Assembly (NCBI GenBank): GCA_038207455.1
Contig: JBBQZT010000016.1
Coordinates: forward strand, 3,298 to 67,297
Direction: 5' to 3'
DNA from: Chloroflexia bacterium
GTDB taxonomy: Bacteria > Chloroflexota > Chloroflexia > Chloroheliales > Chloroheliaceae
Length of the DNA stretch: 64,000 bases
The position numbers and the translations under genes are program-made. Positions 9,097-32,700 of this stretch are shown here, in pieces (position 1 is the first letter of the stretch; every line of letters starts with the position of its first letter). The notes below the pieces were generated by a model. It searched no databases. It had not been told where the DNA came from and saw only the letters and a list, made by a program, of their open reading frames with translations.

Positions 9097-9657
9097 ATGG
9101 CGACATCGCTTTATAATTTAGAGGAGATACGCAAGCAGGCCAACGAGTCTATTTTGGAAGGGGCAGTCACCAAAGATTACCCGCTTGACCTGGACGAAAC
9201 CTATCAACTGATGAACGAGGCTTTGGCTTCAGAAATTTTGTGTGTGCTGCGCTACCGTCACCACCAGATAGTAGCCAAAGGGATTGACTTTCCCCAGGTG
9301 TCGGCGGAATTTGCCGAACACGCCGACGACGAGCAGAAACACATGATGATGATTGCCGAGCGGATTGACCAGTTGGGCGGCGACCCAGATTTCAATCCTT
9401 CGACTGTCCTGACCCGTTCGTCCACCGAGTACGGTAGTAGTGGCACGGAGATTCAGCTTGACCAACTGATTAAGGAAGATTTGGTGGCGGAGCGGATTGC
9501 GATTGAGATTTACCGCAAGCTAATCGAGCATTTCGGCCACGCCGACCCAACCAGCCGCCGGATGTTCGAGAAAATTTTGGAAGACGAGGAAGAACACGCC
9601 AACGATTTGTCCGATTTGTTGGCTGCCGTTGACCCACGCACCAAACCAGCCCATTAA
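9097..9657 (+). CDS. Bacterioferritin-like / ferritin-like di-iron protein
   Basis: Four-helix ferritin signature: ..EILCVLRYRHH.., ..EHADDEQKHMMMIAERI.., ..EDEEEHANDL.. The start is placed at MATSLYN. Confidence 0.7.
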   Translation: MATSLYNLEEIRKQANESILEGAVTKDYPLDLDETYQLMNEALASEILCVLRYRHHQIVAKGIDFPQVSAEFAEHADDEQKHMMMIAERIDQLGGDPDFNPSTVLTRSSTEYGSSGTEIQLDQLIKEDLVAERIAIEIYRKLIEHFGHADPTSRRMFEKILEDEEEHANDLSDLLAAVDPRTKPAH

Positions 9658-9753: not shown

Positions 9754-11088
9754 ATGCGAAAACTTGCTATGAGGTTTGCGGGCGGCTGGATAGCTGGGTT
9801 ATTGGTTTTAATTTTAGCGGCCTGTAATCAGGAAATAACCGACCTGGCTACTACCATCAGCGTTACGGCTACGCCTGTAGCTACAACCGTCGCCCCTTCT
9901 AACATTACGAGCGCGGCGGCTACAATATCAACCCCACCAGATTTGGTCATAAATAGCCCGGTAACACCACCAGCACCTACTCAATCTTTACCGCCTACTG
10001 TCACTCCATACCCGCCTACTATCACCGCTATGCCCACCCCAACCAAAGCCCCCAGCATTACCACTACTATTGCGCCACTGCCAACCAACACGCCACCACC
10101 CAAACCGACAGCCAGCCCTACCTCTAAGCCAACCGCCACTAATAGCAAACTAGAGGATACTTTTAACACAATGGCCCTTAGTCCGCACGGAGTGTTGATA
10201 GCTTTAGGCCAGTCCACAGATAGAAGCAATGGAGTAATCAAATTAATAGAAACGGCTACAGGTAAAACAGTAGCAAGTCTGCGCGGGCATACAGGCAGCA
10301 TCAGCGTGTTAGCCTTCTCGCCAGACGGCACGCTCCTGGCAAGCGGTAGCTCTGATAAAACTGTCCGTATATGGAATGTACAAACCTATCAGTTGCTTTA
10401 CACCTTCAAGGGTTATTCTGACGAGATACTAAAATTGTTTTTCAGCCCGAACAACAAATATCTGGCCTCTGATGACCACTATACGGTGAAAATTTGGGAC
10501 GTGCAAACACATCAAGAGGTCAGCCAATTCAAAGGGCAGGAAGGCACCCCATTGGCCTTTTCCTCCGACGGCAAGCAGTTAGTCAAAATGGGGCCGGATA
10601 GCATCAGATTGACGGATATAGCGACTGGTAAAACGCTGGTCAAGGGAGAGGGCTTCGCCAACGATGCTATTTTTAGCCAGGACGGAAAAACGATAACTTT
10701 TTACAACGGGGTGGCCGATAATTACGGTGCGGGTATCGTAGAGCGTTGGGATATTAAAACCAACAAAACTATTACGATTGCTAATCATTCGCAGACTAAC
10801 CCTGGAACGCTCCCATTTAACCTTTTCTTGCCGGGTGGTGACTATTGGGCAGGCCCAGGCAACAACTATGATGTAAGTCTCTACAGCACGAAAAGCGGCC
10901 AGCCAACTGTTACAATGGAAAATCCAACCCAACATCAACCGCTTGACCACAAAGAGTACAGTACGGGTATATTAGGTTTGGCTGCCTCCAGTCAGCGCGA
11001 ATTGTTGGCGGTGCTAGACCGGGACAACACCCTGGAAGTTTGGATAACACCACAAGGTGTATTGCTTTCGACGGTCAAAATTTCTTAA
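9754..11088 (+). CDS. WD40-repeat lipoprotein with a Pro/Thr-rich linker
   Basis: Signal peptide with a lipobox-like LILAACN, a P/T-rich linker, and WD repeats (GHTGSISVLAFSPDGTLLASGSSDKTVRIWN etc). Confidence 0.8.
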   Translation: MRKLAMRFAGGWIAGLLVLILAACNQEITDLATTISVTATPVATTVAPSNITSAAATISTPPDLVINSPVTPPAPTQSLPPTVTPYPPTITAMPTPTKAPSITTTIAPLPTNTPPPKPTASPTSKPTATNSKLEDTFNTMALSPHGVLIALGQSTDRSNGVIKLIETATGKTVASLRGHTGSISVLAFSPDGTLLASGSSDKTVRIWNVQTYQLLYTFKGYSDEILKLFFSPNNKYLASDDHYTVKIWDVQTHQEVSQFKGQEGTPLAFSSDGKQLVKMGPDSIRLTDIATGKTLVKGEGFANDAIFSQDGKTITFYNGVADNYGAGIVERWDIKTNKTITIANHSQTNPGTLPFNLFLPGGDYWAGPGNNYDVSLYSTKSGQPTVTMENPTQHQPLDHKEYSTGILGLAASSQRELLAVLDRDNTLEVWITPQGVLLSTVKIS

Positions 11089-23507: not shown

Positions 23508-23630
23508 TCGTTACCTATTTACACAGGAAGTTTGCCTATAACCCTCCTAAAATCTTGCCAAGAAATTTAGGAATCCAATTCGTCAAAAACACAAAGACAA
23601 AGCCTAACAGCGCAACGTTAGCGTTTATCA

Positions 23631-24950
23631 TCAGACACAATGTTCAGATACTTTGCCGCGAGTGGTACATTCACAAAACGCCAGGTCGTGGTCAATACGG
23701 CTGGGCAGCACAACCCTTTTGAAATAACGCAAGGCGTTTTGGCGGTTAGCCAACTCCTGGCTCAATTCCCGTTCCTCTTTGTTTTTAGTGCTGGATACAG
23801 TCTGTAGATACTGGTCGTACTCACGCTGCATATTGGCTGGATGTTGCTGGTTTAGCTGGTTTAGGTTGCCCTGGTAATGCGCGTGGCGACGATTGATGGC
23901 ATCAGCATTTAACAGCACCACCGCTAAAGGTCCGGTTACACCAGCAACCAGGAGCGATAGCGGAAAGACTACAATTTGTAAAACAATATTAGACCCAGCG
24001 AAAATTGAAACAAATACTATCAAGACTACCAGTTCAATTACGGTAGCAATGCCCACTTGTTTCCAGGTAGCAGGAATTTTCAGCTTGGTTAAAGCTGGCC
24101 CTATACCACAGATCAGTAATAATAACCAGGCAATACTACCTCCACCACTGGTTAAAGCCGACAACAACGCTATCACTGCCCAACTAGCTACCCCCACGAT
24201 AATTGGCAAACGTAGCAGGTTGAAAAACTGTTTGATGTCCCCGATACTGCTAATCTTGCCAGTAGTAGCCATATTTGTTTGTAATTGATGACTGGCTTGG
24301 GTATAACCGACTTCCATTTGGGCCACCCGGCTTTCGTACTGGCTTTTAGCTTGTTCAGCAAGGGTGACAAATCGGACTTCGCTCTCGCTCCTAAGTCTGT
24401 TTAGTTCTTGGGGAGTAGCAAGGTGTTCAAGTCTCTCAAAACAACGTTGGCGGTCAATACATTCGAGACAATCGCTACCTTTTAACTTGACCGCGTTGCA
24501 TTTTGAGCATAACTCACCGTTTTTACTCTCAAGTTCCAGGAAGAAAATGGCTCCTAACGCCGCTTGTCCACAATTACAGGTTCTGATGATGGTGTTAGTG
24601 CCGTTGATTTTGCCACAATTAGGACATTTCCATTCCCGTTGTAACTTATCCTGCTCGGCTTTAGTTCGCTTTTGCAAGTTAAGAGACTCTCCAGCGATAG
24701 CAGTCTGCTTCTCTGTAGCCCATCTTGTGGCGCGGGCTTCGCTTAAACTGCCTAAGGACGCGGCTGCCGTTACCTGGTTATAGAAAGCTGATCGTTCGTT
24801 GACTTCCACCGAGCGTGCATTAGCAAAGGCCGATTGTTCATCGGCGACTGCTGACCTGTGTGCTGACCGAGCGACTGTAGCGGAAGAAGCAGCCACACTT
24901 TCCGCAGCCTGTTCCACTCTCCTACGATGTTCTTGCCAATTATCACTCAT
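23631..24950 (-). CDS. Membrane protein with two zinc-ribbon motifs and coiled-coil segments, unknown function
   Basis: CPNCGK-x14-CNCG and CSKC-x9-CLEC motifs, 4-5 hydrophobic helices in the middle, and a start 27 nt after the kinase stop on the same strand. Confidence 0.6.
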   Translation of the reverse strand: MSDNWQEHRRRVEQAAESVAASSATVARSAHRSAVADEQSAFANARSVEVNERSAFYNQVTAAASLGSLSEARATRWATEKQTAIAGESLNLQKRTKAEQDKLQREWKCPNCGKINGTNTIIRTCNCGQAALGAIFFLELESKNGELCSKCNAVKLKGSDCLECIDRQRCFERLEHLATPQELNRLRSESEVRFVTLAEQAKSQYESRVAQMEVGYTQASHQLQTNMATTGKISSIGDIKQFFNLLRLPIIVGVASWAVIALLSALTSGGGSIAWLLLLICGIGPALTKLKIPATWKQVGIATVIELVVLIVFVSIFAGSNIVLQIVVFPLSLLVAGVTGPLAVVLLNADAINRRHAHYQGNLNQLNQQHPANMQREYDQYLQTVSSTKNKEERELSQELANRQNALRYFKRVVLPSRIDHDLAFCECTTRGKVSEHCV

Positions 24951-24977
24951 AATATTTCTCCTGTAACTAAATTAGGT

Positions 24978-27900
24978 TTAAAGTTTTGTGACCTTCACCA
25001 AATTGATACGAGCTGCGGCAGGGTTACGGTCAGTAGTGCGTATTTCGATACCAATATAACCTGTAGGCGGAATTTTGTCCTGGTTGCTTTGGTCAGCAGT
25101 AAAAGAAGCAATCATGGTATCGCCATCAAAAGCCGTGACAGAACTGCCCTGCACTATAATTTTCAAATTGATTAGGTTATTAGCTCCGTTCCATTTGACC
25201 GTTTCTCTATTAAGAGGTATAGATTGTCCATTCTTTATACTGACCCACTGGACGTAATTAGCAGTCAAATATAATTTGAGTGTGTTTTGGGAGTTTTGAG
25301 TGCGTACTGCTACCGATATATTCCCATTATCTTGATAATTCACAGTCTCAGGTAAATTGGTAATTTTGGCTTCTACCATATAATCTTTCCAATCGAGGCT
25401 ACCTACGTAAGTAGCCCCCTTTTGACCGCTAAACAAAGTATAGTTTCCGTTATCTACTGACCAACTGCCGCCAACCGAAACATCTGGTTTCCAATCGGCT
25501 TTTGGCCCATTTATGAAATCGTCCTGGAAAAGAATATTGGCAGGTAGGGTGTCAGTATGGTTATTAGCTGAAGCTTGAGCCATAGCCGCCATTTTAGTGA
25601 CCTTGACCAACGAGAAATGTGGAGCAATATCGTTTTTGTCAGTGAGCCTGGTTTGTAGCCCAATATATCCAGCCGTCGGGATTTTATCTTTATTAAGTTG
25701 GTCAGCAGTAAAGGAAGCCAACGGGTTATCACTGTCGTAAGCAGTGACAGTGTTACCCTGGACTACTATCCGTAGATTGATAGTATTGTTGGAACTATGC
25801 CAGCCTATTAAGTCACGGTTAAGGGCGGTGGGCTGTCCATTTTTTACGCTAAACCATTGCACATAATTAGCGGTCAGATACAAACTAAGTTTATTTTGAG
25901 GGTCTTGAGTACGCACCGACACCCAAATATTGCCATTATCCTGGTAATTTACAGTGCTGGGCAGATTGGTAACTTGAGTTTCCAAACTGTAATCTGTCCA
26001 ATCAGAACTACCGATATAGGTGAAACCTTGCTTACCGTAAAATAAACTATAACCCGCACCATCTACGCTCCAACCACCGTTTCCGACGGTTGTATCAGGT
26101 TTCCAGGCAGAATTAGCCCCATTCTTAAAATTATCTTGAAACAAAACCCCCGTTGCAGAATAAGATAAGGGTGGGTCAGACACAGCAGGTTGAACAGGTG
26201 GCAAAAGTTTGGTGATCTTTACATTTGAAAAACGCGGTACTCCACCTGTTTTAGTGGAGCGAATACTTAATCCAACGTAACCTGCTGCCGGGATTTTGTC
26301 TTTGTTAGCTGCGTCAACTATAACGCTGGTGATAAGATTAGGGCCATTATAAGCGGCAATTGAATTACCTTGCACCACTATTTTCAGGTTGATACTGCTA
26401 TTGTTAGACTGCCAACCTTGCGCTTGACGGTTAAGCCCCAATGTTTGGCCGTTACGTTCCGAAAGCCACTGTACATTATTAGCAGTCAGGTACAATTTGA
26501 GCGTGTTTTGAGGGTCTTGAGTACGCACTAACACCCATAAGTTGCCGTTATCCTGGTAGTTTACCGACGTGGGTAAATTGGTAATTTTCATTTCGATGGT
26601 GTAGTCTACCCAATCAGGGCTACCCACGTAAGCACTCCCTTTATCACCACTAAACAAAGTGTAAGCCCCATTATCTACCGACCAGCTACCATTGCCAATA
26701 GTAGTATCGGGCTTCCAATCGGGCTTGCTACTATTCAGAAAATCGTCCTGAAACAAAACGTCGCCAGTTTTAAGGGTCGCTACCCCTGCGGTGGCGTTCA
26801 GGCTGCTACCATTCGCTGCTGTCGCAGCTGCAATGGCCGTAACTGTAAAAGAGTTGCCGATAGGCAGCTGACTGCTGGTAGAGGGACTGGGAACAGTCGT
26901 GTATACTGTTTTGTCCCGAAAAAACGAATTCAAGATTGGTATTACAACGAAAAGCACGATGATACCGCCTATAATCCAGGGTAAGGTAAAACGCGGTCTG
27001 ATGTTGGTGAGACCACCAGAAGGACGGTTAGACCGTCCAGGCTTAAAATTGGGCGGAGGTACAACGTAACGCGAGTAATCTACGTTAGACGAGGATGGTG
27101 TTACGTTGATCGGATTAGCAGGTCTGGTATTAGAAATCGGCGGTGTGGAACGATTAGGGTTGATAAATTCCGTTTGTACAAATTGCGCCTGCGATGGTGG
27201 GACTACTACCGTAGCTGCAATAGCGGGGCTATTAGAATTATTACCTGCTAAAGCTAAATTAAAAGCTTTAGCAAAATCTGTAGGTGTCTTAAAACGTTTT
27301 TGCGGGTCTTTTTCCAATGCGCGTGCTATGACCTGTTGCAATGTAGCTGGCACTGCTATCCCATTGCGGTCTTTGATTGGGTTGGGTACTTTGGCACTCT
27401 TAACTGCTTGATATAAATCGCCTACATTTGTAGCATCAAATAAAGGTTTGCCTGTAATCAATTTAAGCGTAATCACTCCCAAAGCCCAAATATCGGCTTG
27501 AGGGCCAACTTTGCCAAAATTTGTAATTTGTTCGGGAGCCATATATTCGGGTGTTCCCATGCTATAGCTGCCAACCGTAAGATTATGATTATTGTTATGA
27601 GCGATGCCGAAGTCGCACAAACGCAAAGTCCCATCCTGCATAAACAAAATGTTGGCGGGTTTAAGGTCGCGGTGGATTATGCCTTTGGAGTGGGCGTAAT
27701 CCAAAACATTCGCTAACTGCTGCAACCATCCGGCAATCGCGGTTAGAGTAGGCGGGTTTTTCACCACATATTCATTTAAATTGCCTGCGGTAGCACATTC
27801 CAAAACTAGATAAGGCACTATCCCATAGTTGCCCTCATCTTCGACCTTGATAATATAGGGGTTGTCGCGCAGCTGGTTTAATATCTGTATCTCGTTCTTA

Positions 27901-28070
27901 AATCGCTTTTCAGCTTCGTTATCCAGGTGCAGGCCAAACTTGATAGCCACTAATTTATTGGACAAGGATTTATGCCTGGCTAACCAGACTTCACCGAAGC
28001 TACCTGATCCCAATTCTTTTATCAGAATGTATTTGTTCCCAATTTCCTCATCGGCTTTGAATTTAGGCAT
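24978..28070 (-). CDS. Hanks-type Ser/Thr protein kinase with a TM helix and three tandem extracellular jelly-roll (DUF1080/LamG-like) repeats
   Basis: GSGSFGEV, VAIK, HRDLKPANI, DFG and GTPEYMAPE motifs. TM helix WIIGGIIVLFVVIPIL. Three repeats of about 185 aa (approx 26206-26759, 25594-26148, 24981-25537), each starting (V/I)LFQD(D/N)F..W(K)PD..G(S/G)WSVD. Confidence 0.9.
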   Translation of the reverse strand: MPKFKADEEIGNKYILIKELGSGSFGEVWLARHKSLSNKLVAIKFGLHLDNEAEKRFKNEIQILNQLRDNPYIIKVEDEGNYGIVPYLVLECATAGNLNEYVVKNPPTLTAIAGWLQQLANVLDYAHSKGIIHRDLKPANILFMQDGTLRLCDFGIAHNNNHNLTVGSYSMGTPEYMAPEQITNFGKVGPQADIWALGVITLKLITGKPLFDATNVGDLYQAVKSAKVPNPIKDRNGIAVPATLQQVIARALEKDPQKRFKTPTDFAKAFNLALAGNNSNSPAIAATVVVPPSQAQFVQTEFINPNRSTPPISNTRPANPINVTPSSSNVDYSRYVVPPPNFKPGRSNRPSGGLTNIRPRFTLPWIIGGIIVLFVVIPILNSFFRDKTVYTTVPSPSTSSQLPIGNSFTVTAIAAATAANGSSLNATAGVATLKTGDVLFQDDFLNSSKPDWKPDTTIGNGSWSVDNGAYTLFSGDKGSAYVGSPDWVDYTIEMKITNLPTSVNYQDNGNLWVLVRTQDPQNTLKLYLTANNVQWLSERNGQTLGLNRQAQGWQSNNSSINLKIVVQGNSIAAYNGPNLITSVIVDAANKDKIPAAGYVGLSIRSTKTGGVPRFSNVKITKLLPPVQPAVSDPPLSYSATGVLFQDNFKNGANSAWKPDTTVGNGGWSVDGAGYSLFYGKQGFTYIGSSDWTDYSLETQVTNLPSTVNYQDNGNIWVSVRTQDPQNKLSLYLTANYVQWFSVKNGQPTALNRDLIGWHSSNNTINLRIVVQGNTVTAYDSDNPLASFTADQLNKDKIPTAGYIGLQTRLTDKNDIAPHFSLVKVTKMAAMAQASANNHTDTLPANILFQDDFINGPKADWKPDVSVGGSWSVDNGNYTLFSGQKGATYVGSLDWKDYMVEAKITNLPETVNYQDNGNISVAVRTQNSQNTLKLYLTANYVQWVSIKNGQSIPLNRETVKWNGANNLINLKIIVQGSSVTAFDGDTMIASFTADQSNQDKIPPTGYIGIEIRTTDRNPAAARINLVKVTKL

Positions 28071-28609
28071 ATTTTTCCTGCTTTGCTAACTGTTTCAGGT
28101 TGTGTATAGATGGAGTTCCCTGGTGCTAAATATAGCACATTTCTGGATAATTATTCACTGAAATACTAAAATAAGATGTTGCTAACCTAAAACATCGAAA
28201 TGTCTTACGCTCGTCAAGTTAAAAATAATATCACCTAAGTAGGGTTAAGCTAAATAATAAGCAGCTTTCCATCCGAATTTTAGCTCGAAAATCGTTAGTT
28301 TTTGTTAGATTGAGTTACCATAAAAGTGATTTTTGGTAGGGTTGTCTAACAAAAAGTTGATAAATACTCGTTCCAAGTCCTATAATAAATAGTCTAAAAG
28401 TGATTTGTGCATATATTATTCTTATGTTGGCGTGTGTACCCTTCACGCAGCCGAGCCTCCACTCAAGATGATAAATTTGACTAGCACAACGCCTTAGTTA
28501 CCAAAGTTTTTGATAGCTTGATTATACTACATTTAGCTACAAATAAGTCAATTGAGCCGAAGATTTGCAGAGCGGTACCTATTTGCCGCAAAACATGGTA
28601 GTATTGTAA

Positions 28610-29269
28610 CTACGCAGGTGTTGTTACGGCTTGTGAAGAAGCTGTTTGCGTGCTTTCATCTCGAATATCTATGCCCAGTTGGGTTACAAAGGTGAAACGA
28701 GTACCTTCGATTACCGGGGTTACTTCGTGGATGGTATGAGCGGGGAAGGCGACTAACAGGCCCGTTTCGCCCCTGATTTGAAAACCGTAGTCTTGCCAGC
28801 CCTCTTTTTGGATGAGGCCGTATAAGAATAAAGCTCCCCCAACGTACCCATCCCCATCGGGTGCTTCGACCTCGTTATTTTCGTTATTGAGGAAGATAAT
28901 TGTAGTAATCTCGCCTGGCCTGGTTTCGGGCAATTGGTCACGATGAGGGCGAATGAAATCTCCCGCTCGATAGCTTATAAACTTTTGAGTGTTTTGCCTT
29001 CCCAAAGATAGCTTGAAAAAGTCTTCTAATTGTGGTCGGGCCGCGTCCAACCGCTCGGTGATGAGCGTGCGAAGGGGTGCAGGGCTGTTCATGACTTTGA
29101 GTTGGCTTACCTCGTCCACCTGCCGCACCACCCCGTCATCGTCCACTGTGCCTAGCCAATCAACCGGAGCAGCTTCGGAACTGGCTACGACCTGGGCTGC
29201 CAGTTCCGGCTCTAAAAAATTAGGACGTACAAAGACTCCTAATTTGGCTAACAAATCGAAATTAGACAT
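28610..29269 (-). CDS. 2OG-Fe(II) oxygenase, prolyl-4-hydroxylase-like
   Basis: Facial triad RPHRD ... HTIHEV and 2OG-binding Arg in GTRFTFV. The start is set at ATG 29269 (MSNFDLL, GAAGG upstream) rather than the TTG at 29383. Confidence 0.8.
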   Translation of the reverse strand: MSNFDLLAKLGVFVRPNFLEPELAAQVVASSEAAPVDWLGTVDDDGVVRQVDEVSQLKVMNSPAPLRTLITERLDAARPQLEDFFKLSLGRQNTQKFISYRAGDFIRPHRDQLPETRPGEITTIIFLNNENNEVEAPDGDGYVGGALFLYGLIQKEGWQDYGFQIRGETGLLVAFPAHTIHEVTPVIEGTRFTFVTQLGIDIRDESTQTASSQAVTTPA

Positions 29270-29303
29270 GGGCGGCCTTCGCATCAAATAGCATTCGGTG
29301 CCA

Positions 29304-29480
29304 CTAGGATACCCGAACTCCAGCAAGCCTGATAATACCTGTGGTAGCCTGGGTGAGATTACGAACATCACCGTAAGCTGCAAGCTGCGGTTTGTGGTAG
29401 GTTCGTTTTACATTTGTAGGGACGCTTTCAGTGCTAATCTCTGACTCGGAAGGCTGCTGAGTCTCTTGTTTGCTTTCCAT
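29304..29480 (-). CDS. 58-aa peptide with a lasso-type leader motif (not in the ORF track, which cuts off at 60 aa)
   Basis: MESKQETQQPSESEISTESVPTNVKRTYHKPQLAAYGDVRNLTQATTGIIRLAGVRVS. GGAGG lies 7 nt before the ATG. Residues 28-44 fit Y-x2-P-x-L-x3-G-x5-T-x. The ORF ends 34 nt before the oxygenase start. Confidence 0.55.
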   Translation of the reverse strand: MESKQETQQPSESEISTESVPTNVKRTYHKPQLAAYGDVRNLTQATTGIIRLAGVRVS

Positions 29481-29576
29481 TTAATGACCTCCAATAAATA
29501 CATAAATAGAACCTGATTATTCAGAAGATGAGAAAAGTAAAGGGAAAGAGGTTTTCAAGGGACACCCTGCCATACG

Positions 29577-29604
29577 CACGGAGCGTTCTCCGTGACCTCT
29601 GAGG
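29577..29604. repeat. Family D short element (CACGGAG hairpin plus CAGAGG)
   Basis: CACGGAGCGTTCTCCGTGACCTCTGAGG. Related copies lie at 34887-34913 and 49295-49323. This copy lies in the 5' leader of the small ORF. Confidence 0.5.
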
Positions 29605-29609
29605 GATGG

Positions 29610-29638
29610 ATACTAGCAGAAATCAAAATACCTGTCAA
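29610..29638 (-). promoter_or_regulatory. Sigma-70-like promoter, TTGACA-17 nt-TAGTAT, for the peptide-oxygenase pair
   Basis: The minus strand reads TTGACAGGTATTTTGATTTCTGCTAGTAT, immediately downstream of the nuclease-gene terminator. Confidence 0.55.
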
Positions 29639-29651
29639 ATATTTACTTTAC

Positions 29652-29690
29652 AAAAAAAGAAAAGCCCCCAGGTCGAAACCCAGAGGCTTT
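29652..29690 (-). terminator. Intrinsic terminator of the nuclease gene
   Basis: The minus strand reads AAAGCCTCTGGGTTTCGACCTGGGGGCTTTTCTTTTTTTG: a GC/GU stem, a TTCG loop and a T-run, 22 nt after the stop at 29713. Confidence 0.65.
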
Positions 29691-29712
29691 TGCTATTTAA
29701 CCCTGTGTGAAC

Positions 29713-32700
29713 CTATTGGTTAGGCTCGGTGTAGGTATAGAACAAGCCTGCACCTGGATTAGTAGCGTTGGTGGTGTCAATCAAGGCGTTGGGTGTGCCG
29801 CCCGTTTGGTTCAACACGGCTGTCCCGTAGGTCAGACCACTGATGCCACCTTGAAATACTCCGACGCTGGCATACGGGTTCAAGGTGTAGTTGGCGGGCG
29901 TTAGGCCAGCTATCGGTTGACCGTTGATACCGTAGTAAGTTAGCGTGAAGCTGACCACGCTGCTACTGGCGTTAAAGACTGTCGTACCAGTCGTATAGCC
30001 GAAGCCGCCGTTGGCTATCACGGGCAAACCTACTACCTCGCTTCCACTGGCTGCCGCGCTATAGGTTCCGCTTTCGCTGCTGGTGGTCACGTTGATGTTG
30101 TCTTCGTTGACGACCATCACTACGCCGCCACCTGTTGCAGTAACCACTGCCGCCCCTGTAAAGCCAATAGGTAAACCACTGTTGCCGCCCGGCCCTTGAT
30201 AAAGTGGCTGGATGCTACGCCCATTAAGGGTGAAAGCTGGCATTGGGGTAGCCGTACCGCTCAAGTTGTAGTAGGTTACGCTCACGGAAACAGGAGCGGA
30301 ATTGGGATTGACAATGTTTACGCCTGTCACAAACCCACCGTAGGCGTTGTTAAAGATAGCCGGAGCATACAGCGTATTCTTGGGACTGGCCTGAGCATTG
30401 GCAATCGCCACGAAGCGGATGTCGGGGCGTTGCTCCAGCACCTGAGCTACCAACGATGAGCCGGATGCACCAGCGATTTGCGCCCAACCATAGAAACCTG
30501 CTGGTAAGTTGCTGGCGACGGCGGTCTGGTCGAGCGTAACCGACTGGCGCGGGCCAATCGTGATGTTCTGGCTAGAATTGGCCGGCGCATTACCGGACTG
30601 GTCGTAGAAATTGACCGTCGCGGTAGTAGTAACCGTGCTACTGTTAAACACCATTAGCTGAGTGATGAACCCACCCTGGTTGTTGATTGCCAGCGGCGCG
30701 GTTAGATTGGCTGCCGAACCCTGACTGACGGCATACGCACTGCCGCCGAAAGGCGTGCCTTCGGCCACAATCACGTTAAGCGGCTGGTCACTGCTAATAA
30801 TACCTGCCCCTTTTGCTCCGGTGTTGTAAGGGTTGGACGGCAAAGCTTCACCATACGGCGCAATGGTGGTAACGACCGTAGCAGCGGTCAAAGTCATACC
30901 CGTGCTATCAAAGTAGTTGATGGTCACGGTAGCCGTAACCGGGCCGTTATTCTGGAAGGCTAAATAGCTGGTGAACGTGCCTGTAATGGGCGCACCCGGA
31001 TTATATTGGTTGCCCAAGAACGGCAGATTGTAGGTGTAGGTCTGGCTAAAATCGAAAACCACAGTTTCCGGTTCATGATCGCTCAACCGCAATGGGTCGG
31101 CATCGGCATAATCGGAGTTGATATGCACGGGTTGGCCTGACCCAGCTACAAGTTTAGAAGCTAAACCTTTGCTATAAAAGATATGGTCAAGGTTTTGAGC
31201 ATTCCCTTCAAAAACGTAAGAATATTTGGCAATGTTGGTGGTCGAACTTTCAACCGCATCGGTCAAAACCTGGCTAGGGCCAACGGGTAAAGTCGCGCCA
31301 TAGCCACCCATTTTGAGAGCCAACAGTTCCGGTTCAAATTCAAACGCATTCATATCACCTGCTACGATGACATTGGCATTCGGGTTAGCGTTCAAAATTT
31401 GCGTCACGAAATCGCGGTTGACGACAGCCTGAGCAATCCGTTGTGGTTCGGACAGTAGCAGCGCAGGCTGGGGGTCGCCATACAAAGCTACATCGCCGCC
31501 CCGCGAAGTCAAATGGTTGCCAATCACAATCAGGCGTTGGCCGTTAAACAGAAACTCTCCGGCCAAGGGTTTACGACTGTTGCTGCTATTGCTCGTTCCA
31601 GTGATGCCCAAACTGTTGGTAACAGTGGTGGTAGGATAAGTCGAGCTAAAAGCCGGATTGGTAGGGTCAATGCGGCCTGGGCTTTGGGTCAGTGTGCCAT
31701 CAGGGTTGACTCCATCCGCCACAGTCGGCCCACCACCGGGTTTACTGACAAAAGTTAAGCCTCTGTCTGTTCGGAACAAGAAAACCACCCGAATATTTCC
31801 ACCCGGTTGTCCGCCGTCCTGGTTATTAACCGGATTGATGTACTGCCAGGTGTAGCTGATGCCCGAATTCGCGAAAATCGCGTCTCGAATATGGCCCAGG
31901 TTTATGTCAGCTGTAACCGTCCCGTCATCGGTGGGGCCGCTATCGTCCTGAATTTCTTCTAACACCATCAAATCAGGCAAACCCAAATAGTTGACGATAT
32001 GATTAGTCAGGGTTAGCACCCGACTATCGCTAACCGTAGTCGAGGAGAAGTTTTCGATGTTGTAATCCACCACCCGCAACTGTTTAGGATTGGTCACGTT
32101 GGCAACTGTGTCGCGCGGCAAGGCATTGGCGGTATAGGTGGGAACGGTGCGGGTTTGAATATACCAGTTGCCGAAAGTGGAGTCCAAAGGCCCCACAATC
32201 GCGCTGGTAATCTGGTCGCCCACCTTGACTGGTGGATTGCCAGGATAGCCCAACGCATCTTTGCCAACCTGAACACGCTGCGAATTAAATTGGGTAGGCG
32301 AAATCGGCAAAGCACCCCGCGAGTTAAAGGTCAGACCCAGGCCGTTGTCCGGCACAACTGCAAATTCATTGAAACCATTGGCAGGCCCAACTACTCGGCC
32401 ATTATCTACTTCCACCAGCATACCTTCGACAGACTCGAACAAGTCCACCGAATTAAGGCTGGGGTCGTAACCGCCCGTCGTGTTATTGTAGGTGCTGCTG
32501 GTATAAATGCTGGATGGTATTAAGCGGATGTAATTGTTACCAGCTTGTAAACGAGCCGGATCAATGGTCAACACGGTAGGTGTAATGGTTGGCCCAACTC
32601 CCTGGTCGGTGACAACCGGATTACTACCAATTTCGGTAAGCGGTTGGTAGGTACTACCGCTACTCCTAAACTCGCTGATTCTACCCACCACTTGAACATT

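Follow-up and report, generated by a model that had tools for sequence, protein, structure and literature searches.

On the minus strand of a 64-kb stretch of DNA from a Chloroflexia bacterium (contig JBBQZT010000016.1; the whole stretch is called the window below), a gene for a 58-residue peptide with a lasso-type leader stands directly ahead of a gene for a 2-oxoglutarate (2OG)-Fe(II) oxygenase, and on balance the two probably form a reduced precursor–hydroxylase module that makes a linear modified peptide. Lasso peptides are RiPPs (ribosomally synthesised, post-translationally modified peptides). The route that we favour is one in which a paeninodin-type lasso cluster was reduced to a conserved, co-transcribed unit of two genes, a precursor-like peptide and a tailoring oxygenase. 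One promoter would drive transcription of both genes, the oxygenase would oxidise, most simply hydroxylate, a residue of the linear peptide, and the product would remain linear. The evidence comes from the layout of the unit, from the relatives of both proteins in lasso clusters, from searches of the window for the remaining lasso machinery and from the counterpart of the pair in a sister species, which is represented by eight metagenome-derived loci on six contigs. The elements of the unit are the following, with leader positions counted back from the predicted cleavage site.

29660..29691, minus strand: intrinsic terminator of the upstream 1141-residue gene, a 14-bp stem with six GC pairs followed by a T-run; kept in the sister species and forming the 5' boundary of the unit
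29610..29638, minus strand: sigma-70-type promoter TTGACA-17-TAGTAT, with 10 of 12 matches and an extended -10 TG
29481..29603, minus strand: 5' untranslated region (UTR) of about 120 nt, read from the sequence and about 85–90% conserved in the sister species
29304..29480, minus strand: gene of the 58-residue precursor-like peptide, stop codon included, encoding MESKQETQQPSESEISTESVPTNVKRTYHKPQLAAYGDVRNLTQATTGIIRLAGVRVS
29349..29399, minus strand: leader recognition motif, residues 28–44, YHKPQLAAYGDVRNLTQ, with Tyr-17, Pro-14, Leu-12, Gly-8 and Thr-2
29307..29348, minus strand: putative 14-residue core ATTGIIRLAGVRVS, without Asp, Glu, Pro, Asn or Lys and with a conserved C-terminal Ser
28610..29269, minus strand: 219-residue 2OG-Fe(II) oxygenase of PF13640, resembling prolyl hydroxylase domain (PHD) proteins and prolyl 4-hydroxylases (P4Hs), with H109-x-D111...H181...R191

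The peptide open reading frame (ORF) and its translation, the Shine–Dalgarno site, the promoter behind the terminator of the preceding gene and the P4H-like oxygenase gene had all been proposed in a preliminary description of the window, and each was reproduced here. Its view of the peptide as unannotated needs amending: the ORF does fall below the 60-residue cutoff applied there, but it had already been called as a protein (P0053) in a public source. The upstream gene, an Exo_endo_phos nuclease/phosphatase, ends at 29713 on the minus strand. In the sister species (loci L001 and L008) the promoter differs by one substitution overall, in the spacer right before the -10 element, so that both hexamers are identical, and the GGAGG Shine–Dalgarno site at 29492–29488, 7 nt ahead of the peptide ATG at 29480, is conserved as well. 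The oxygenase ATG at 29269 lies 34 nt beyond the peptide stop codon, and joint transcription of the two genes from the one promoter, as a two-gene module, is the arrangement that we consider somewhat more probable than any other. The 5' UTR begins with a perfect 7-bp hairpin (CACGGAG-AACG-CTCCGTG, 29577–29594, minus strand) that is invariant in the sister species and shows no covariation. A regulatory RNA in the 5' UTR was considered and rejected: Rfam returned sub-threshold chance matches only, and the fold is no more stable than that of shuffled sequence (z = -1.0).

The leader is a genuine lasso-type leader, beyond a chance match to a regular expression. The pattern Y-x2-P-x-L-x3-G-x5-T-x recognised in the preliminary description passed the NCBIfam lasso-leader check, with NF033521 (lasso_leader_L3) scoring 20.6 bits over residues 28–44 against a cutoff of 19, and its spacing from the predicted cleavage site is canonical (YxxPxLx3Gx5Tx). 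The model NF033528 (lasso_cyano) aligns to leader residues 25–46 only (E = 5.8e-6) and, at 26.2 bits, stays under its whole-peptide cutoff of 33 bits. A leader hidden Markov model (HMM) run over 24,134 six-frame ORFs gave the peptide an E value of 8e-14, which is partly circular in that the training set comprised six independent lasso precursors together with the two peptides of this lineage; the same search revealed no second leader-type peptide in the window.

The core, in turn, led us to reject lasso peptide identity, as the ring-closing acid that defines these peptides is absent. The preliminary description had read a 14-residue core without Asp or Glu, and the sequence bears this out: both ATTGIIRLAGVRVS in the window and ATTGIIRLAGIQGS in the sister species have Ala at position 1 and contain no acidic residue anywhere, including positions 7–9 where the macrolactam is closed, and without an acidic core residue no macrolactam or lasso fold is possible. 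For comparison we took the 120 best relatives of the leader type from a profile search over 5.8 billion clustered proteins. Asp or Glu occupies core position 7–9 in 115 of them and position 10 in two more, and the acid-free remainder consists of the window peptide, its counterpart in the sister species and a single D9Y variant of the common core type from soil. The core is also short, at 14 residues versus 19–23 in the relatives. In paeninodin-type systems the C-terminal Ser is phosphorylated, and the conserved C-terminal Ser of the present core, which stands beside three variable residues, resembles that feature; an HPr-kinase-like gene for such a modification was found in the window neither by tblastn nor by profile HMMs.

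The rest of a lasso biosynthetic gene cluster is likewise missing from the 64 kb around the precursor. Searches of the window with tblastn found no lasso B1, B2, C or kinase gene (best E value at least 0.12) and no methyltransferase or nucleotidyltransferase gene, and profile HMMs for the RiPP recognition element (RRE)/B1, the B2 protease, the cyclase C and the HPr-kinase-like protein, run with --max over its six frames, found none either (best E value at least 0.13). The presence of lasso maturation genes in the window was rejected on these grounds, in agreement with the earlier observation that it holds no Asn-synthetase-like cyclase, transglutaminase-like protease or RRE. An NTP_transf_5 query had no tblastn match in the window, and the only match to an ABC exporter query was the ATPase of a solute-uptake operon. 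According to Pfam the neighbouring genes are unrelated; they encode a nuclease/phosphatase, a Ser/Thr kinase, a ClpC-like ATPase, an S1-domain protein, and a solute-binding protein with an ABC ATPase. Neither HIP1 repeats nor tRNA genes occur in the window.

The oxygenase shows all the features of its family. PF13640 (2OG-FeII_Oxy_3) matches with an E value of 8.8e-8 and 33.4 bits, above the gathering score of 27, and the metal-binding triad H109, D111 and H181 and the basic R191, the putative ligand of the 2OG C5 carboxylate, are invariant in a 50-sequence alignment. An AlphaFold2 model (predicted local distance difference test, pLDDT, 86.8) adopts the double-stranded beta-helix fold; its top matches in the PDB are Pseudomonas PPHD (4iw3) and human PHD2, with template modelling (TM) scores of 0.6–0.67, and the best sequence-profile matches in the PDB are PKHD-type hydroxylases and P4Hs. 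A PHD/PPHD-like fold, as predicted here, is what peptide and protein hydroxylases typically have, and the model has no extra domain that could represent a fused RRE. Beyond the sister species, at 83%, the nearest homologues share only 29–40% identity with the window enzyme.

The relatives of the two proteins clearly point to descent of the pair from a lasso cluster whose tailoring enzyme belonged to this oxygenase clade. Oxygenase loci were collected by a scan of one genome per prokaryotic species and related in a neighbour-joining tree. Several of the best-scoring ones, among them L009, L010, L011, L020, L035, L065 and L090, are complete lasso clusters with the general order PqqD/B1, (B2), Asn-synthase-like C, precursor, HPr-kinase-like kinase, oxygenase, methyltransferase, ABC transporter and NTP_transf_5. 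The top-scoring locus, L009 from the cyanobacterium Roseofilum, comprises PqqD/B1, Asn-synthase-like C, precursor, HPr-kinase-like protein, oxygenase, PRMT-like methyltransferase, ABC exporter and NTP_transf_5, and variations on its order are seen in the other six named (L011 has B2) and in several actinobacterial loci. The precursors of the lasso-cluster loci share the leader and carry Asp at core position 8 or 9, except in L010, where it is at position 10. The closest leader outside the lineage, 73% identical, is that of the L009 precursor (P0055), which is publicly annotated as a lasso RiPP leader peptide. Because peptide and oxygenase both have top-ranked matches in L009, they appear to have been inherited together from a paeninodin-type lasso cluster.

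The tree agrees with this origin. It places the window oxygenase beside that of L089, a locus with RREs and a kinase, and next to the clade in which members with an RRE, lasso or kinase association are gathered; a large Pyrinomonadaceae/Mesorhizobium clade without RiPP context lies apart from it. The tree neighbour, which comes from a Chloroflexia metagenome-assembled genome (MAG), is 38% identical to the window enzyme, and other homologues reach 39–40%. Within the RiPP-associated part of the tree, an RRE lies nearby in 17 of 26 loci, counting the RRE-positive L089, and several of the RRE-less loci among the 26 sit on short or truncated contigs. To judge from these gene neighbourhoods, the oxygenase clade is a recurrent tailoring enzyme of RRE-dependent RiPP clusters.

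Some of these loci are of interest in their own right. L089 (7956–10816, on the same contig as L012) lacks a cyclase and has two RREs (PqqD), an HPr-kinase/ScmC-like kinase and two precursors of the WxxPxILLEQ type. The genes run in the order oxygenase, PqqD, precursor (…KKTWVAPAILLEQSL…), a duplicated piece of the oxygenase C terminus, HPr-kinase/ScmC-like P-loop protein, PqqD, precursor (…KKVWEAPAILLEQSLIV…) and Peptidase_C25, which resembles the clusters of linear polyphosphorylated peptides (PMC13381572) but with a PHD-like oxygenase. In MAGs of Dadabacteria and Thermodesulfobacteriota, which include L022, the oxygenase is followed by PqqD and by a precursor with the leader …EFKIELKKIGTLEENT… and the Cys-containing core DIICCGIPDN (L013, 5349–7327; L014, 2203–4081); in L022 (1237–5325) the same oxygenase clade occurs near several related precursors and a fusion of PqqD with a PGA_cap/CapA domain, to which family the lasso epimerase MslH also belongs. 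The 502 database clusters matched consist mostly of a very abundant family of lasso precursors, 55–62 residues long (P0056, P0061–P0172), which are largely metagenomic and whose named members are Pyrinomonadaceae. The core of this soil family, NAGPKGNLDGGGGAAAGPKTG[VT], is near-invariant and has collagen-like G-P-K triplets, and as a hypothesis its GPK sites could undergo prolyl or lysyl hydroxylation. The family is represented among the oxygenase loci by L065 (5603–11995), with B1, PHD/P4H-like oxygenase, C, precursor, HPr-kinase-like protein, PRMT-like methyltransferase and NTP_transf_5.

In the sister species the pair is kept with 83% amino-acid identity for both proteins, at a synonymous divergence (dS) of about 0.4–0.55 between the two species. 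The ratio of non-synonymous to synonymous divergence (dN/dS) comes to 0.145 in the peptide gene and 0.20 in the oxygenase gene, which is close to the 0.09 and 0.19 of the flanking genes. Among the 26 substitutions in the peptide gene, 16 are synonymous and 10 non-synonymous (binomial P = 4e-5); residues 16–54, a stretch that takes in the leader motif and core residues 1–10, account for 11 synonymous and only two non-synonymous changes (P = 1e-5). In both of the remaining frames the ratio exceeds 1.7. The sole substitution in the leader motif is the conservative exchange of Leu-12 for Phe, and core residues 1–10 are identical, which provides the conserved pairing and core in a second genome that the preliminary description had asked for. 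Such constraint on the leader motif implies that something still reads the leader, and the reader could be, with roughly equal likelihood, the oxygenase itself or an RRE, possibly together with a B2-type protease, encoded outside the window. We rejected the idea that the small ORF is conserved as a side effect of an antisense ORF or of an upstream-extended, 257-residue oxygenase ORF (28610–29383), given that the selection is specific to the peptide frame and that about 150 nt are inserted between the two genes in the sister species. A 66-residue version called there from an upstream start was also set aside, the corresponding ATG being out of frame in the window.

The surroundings of the pair have meanwhile been rearranged. 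The insertion just mentioned, between the peptide stop and the oxygenase ATG (L001, about 9850–9997), widens the gap from 34 to 181 nt. A segment beginning about 100 nt downstream of the oxygenase varies between strains (23519–28608 in the window versus 1560–4100 in L008, and also in L007): a single 800-residue AAA_22/AAA_35 (STAND-like) gene in L007 and L008 replaces the 1030-residue Ser/Thr kinase and the 439-residue membrane/zinc-ribbon protein of the window and L001. Since the pair is intact where the kinase is replaced, the kinase lies outside the unit, and it was rejected as a stand-in for a lasso kinase for the same reason, an unrelated AAA-type gene taking its place in the other sister-species strain. 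The 1030-residue protein itself (24978–28070, minus strand) has a Pkinase domain at its N terminus, a linker rich in Pro and Ser, a transmembrane segment and, at the C terminus, three tandem repeats of about 190 residues, which are 64–74% identical to one another in DNA and in which no Pfam family was detected. L001 has a second insertion of about 150 nt (about 9314–9466) between the upstream terminator and the promoter, containing a 29-nt inverted repeat (9368–9396/9407–9435) that gives it the look of a miniature inverted-repeat transposable element (MITE).

Several of these observations have to be weighed against a two-gene module that makes a modified peptide. The case is built on two closely related species, and the pair occurs in one narrow lineage only, the window genome and one sister species; no other close relative was found among the 5.8 billion clustered proteins or in a scan of JGI metagenomes. 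Most of the RiPP-associated oxygenase loci have an RRE nearby, and the 64 kb of the window have none; neither an exporter nor a leader peptidase adjoins the pair. All nine cores read from other clusters of the oxygenase (L009, L010, L011, L013/L014, L020, L035, L065 and two in L089) contain Pro and either Asn or Asp, and the window core contains none of them, so that its present substrate site cannot be guessed and the ancestral target residue may be gone. An attempt to derive the target from residues conserved across these cores was uninformative for the same reason. That the peptide is modified is purely something that we infer: it is the most plausible substrate of the oxygenase, and removal of the leader and a biological role for the product would be expected on the same basis. 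A more far-reaching version of the module, in which the pathway is self-sufficient, the oxygenase reads the lasso-type leader without an RRE and hydroxylates the short hydrophobic/basic core, and the linear peptide represents a new minimal RiPP class that arose by stripping of a lasso cluster, seems to us rather unlikely.

The alternatives differ in what they make of the conserved leader and core. The two genes may be neighbours by descent that no longer act as enzyme and substrate, with the peptide serving as a small regulatory protein, or as a mimic or competitor that occupies the RRE of a RiPP pathway encoded in another part of the genome, and the oxygenase acting on another protein or peptide. 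The RRE-binding motif and its surroundings are indeed the most constrained part of the peptide, its reader may lie elsewhere given the lack of an RRE in the window, the core is without the kinds of residue that every other core of the oxygenase clade contains, and PHD-like enzymes can hydroxylate housekeeping proteins, as PPHD does with EF-Tu (PDB 4iw3). However, a pure leader mimic would have no need of the first ten core residues, which are conserved as strictly as the leader, and the two genes share one promoter across a gap of only 34 nt in the window genome and have stayed adjacent through two independent local rearrangements. No precedent for a leader decoy turned up in the literature, where no dedicated search for one was made, and such a loss of the enzyme–substrate relation strikes us as a minority prospect. 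Very improbable by comparison is the idea that the genome holds a complete lasso cluster in another place, with the peptide as an additional precursor that the B1, B2 and C of that cluster would mature to a lasso or at least cleave: the canonical leader is intact, including the Thr-2 that B2 proteases need, but the macrolactam can be closed only through the side chain of an Asp or Glu at core position 7–9, which the shorter core offers in neither species. A degenerate DNA pattern for TQATTGIIRLAG recovered only the known sister contig from the JGI metagenomes, and a complete cluster with a near-identical precursor, which the preliminary description had named as the sign of a decaying duplicate, was not found among the clustered proteins or in those metagenomes. 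The same description had offered two readings, a stranded or decayed lasso precursor and a leader-bearing substrate of the oxygenase, of which we consider the second the more plausible. Stranded it is in the evolutionary sense that the pair derives from a lasso cluster, but not as a decayed relic. Loss of all other cluster genes and of the ring-forming residue, together with the very narrow distribution, would suit a non-functional remnant on its way to decay, yet at a dS of about 0.5 a neutral 58-codon ORF should show many non-synonymous changes and probably stops or frameshifts. Instead, purifying selection acts on the peptide in a frame-specific manner and on the oxygenase, which is intact with its catalytic residues, and the promoter, 5' UTR and Shine–Dalgarno site are conserved. 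The remnant is strongly disfavoured, with hardly any weight left to it, and the substitution patterns instead suggest a pair that is maintained by selection and still in use.

If the reduced module is real, it would mean that a tailoring enzyme and its precursor can outlive the machinery that defines their RiPP class and persist as an independently selected unit, and units of this kind would escape genome mining that takes cyclases or RREs as its anchor. The pair would also make a simple two-component system in which to study the recognition of a lasso-type leader without a neighbouring RRE, and would open a way into a PHD-like oxygenase clade that occurs frequently in lasso, LPP-like (linear polyphosphorylated peptide) and other RRE-dependent clusters, including the abundant lasso family of soil Pyrinomonadaceae. 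Leaders of the lasso type, Fe/2OG enzymes that tailor lasso precursors and relatives of lasso clusters without a cyclase have all been described before; what appears to be new is the RRE-less two-gene arrangement combined with an acid-less core under purifying selection. The searchable literature yielded no biochemical description of the oxygenase clade, and the nearest characterised systems are CanE, the LPPs and CorC.

At the level of fold, the oxygenase is closest to the PHD/P4H-type hydroxylases (PPHD 4iw3, PHD2 and the PKHD-type YbiX/PiuC), its best structural and profile matches, with which it shares the double-stranded beta-helix and the HxD...H...R signature. Identity to them is 15–20%, and their known substrates are prolines in folded proteins or hypoxia-inducible factor (HIF) peptides, whereas the window core is free of proline. 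Within RiPP biosynthesis, CorC belongs to the same Pfam family, PF13640, and likewise acts as a tailoring hydroxylase; it hydroxylates the graspetide corallotide, a product described as the first hydroxylation on a cyclised graspetide (PMC13097080), and hence serves another RiPP class.

Nearer in function is CanE, the Fe(II)/2-oxoglutarate hydroxylase of the canucin cluster (Zhang and Seyedsayamdost 2020; reviewed in PMC9266682, PMC8498205). Those lasso tailoring enzymes that have been characterised work on the linear precursor, and CanE is reported to modify the linear lasso precursor, stimulated by an RRE and less efficient without it. The likeness to the window pair is that of an Fe/2OG enzyme encoded beside a lasso-type precursor and not strictly in need of an RRE (PMC9266682); the differences are that CanE belongs to a complete lasso cluster and hydroxylates a C-terminal Asp, a residue absent from the window peptide. 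The preliminary description knew of no account of a pairing such as the present one, which has to be narrowed accordingly: an Fe/2OG hydroxylase working on a linear lasso precursor is known from CanE (PMC9266682), and homologues of the oxygenase stand beside lasso-type precursors in many complete clusters, but a unit of just two genes, with a core free of acidic residues and with RRE, protease and cyclase all missing from its vicinity, does appear undescribed.

The LPPs (Popov et al. 2026; PMC13381572) are non-cyclised RiPPs that arose alongside paeninodin-like lasso systems, with an RRE-binding leader of the type [Y/W]xxPx[L/V/I]. Their clusters consist of a discrete RRE, a kinase resembling HprK, an SpI-type peptidase, an NTP transferase and an exporter similar to MsbA, and the window, with neither RRE nor kinase, does not contain such a cluster. 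The LPP leader reads YxxPxVLxHQxIxFE(TxxS), in contrast to the lasso type YxxPxLx3Gx5Tx of the window. What the two have in common is the combination of a linear RiPP, predicted in our case, with a lasso-like leader, and the nearest oxygenase in the tree from beyond the lineage is that of L089, a locus like the LPP clusters in leader, RRE and kinase. Paeninodin-type lasso clusters, finally, are made up of split B1/B2, C, an HPr-kinase-like kinase, NTP_transf_5 and an ABC exporter. The 64 kb of the window lack B1, B2, C, kinase, methyltransferase, exporter and nucleotidyltransferase, and the core is shorter and acid-free; in common with these clusters the leader keeps the spacing of Tyr-17, Pro-14, Leu-12 and Thr-2, L009 supplies both the closest leader and the top-scoring oxygenase, and others among them carry the same oxygenase clade.

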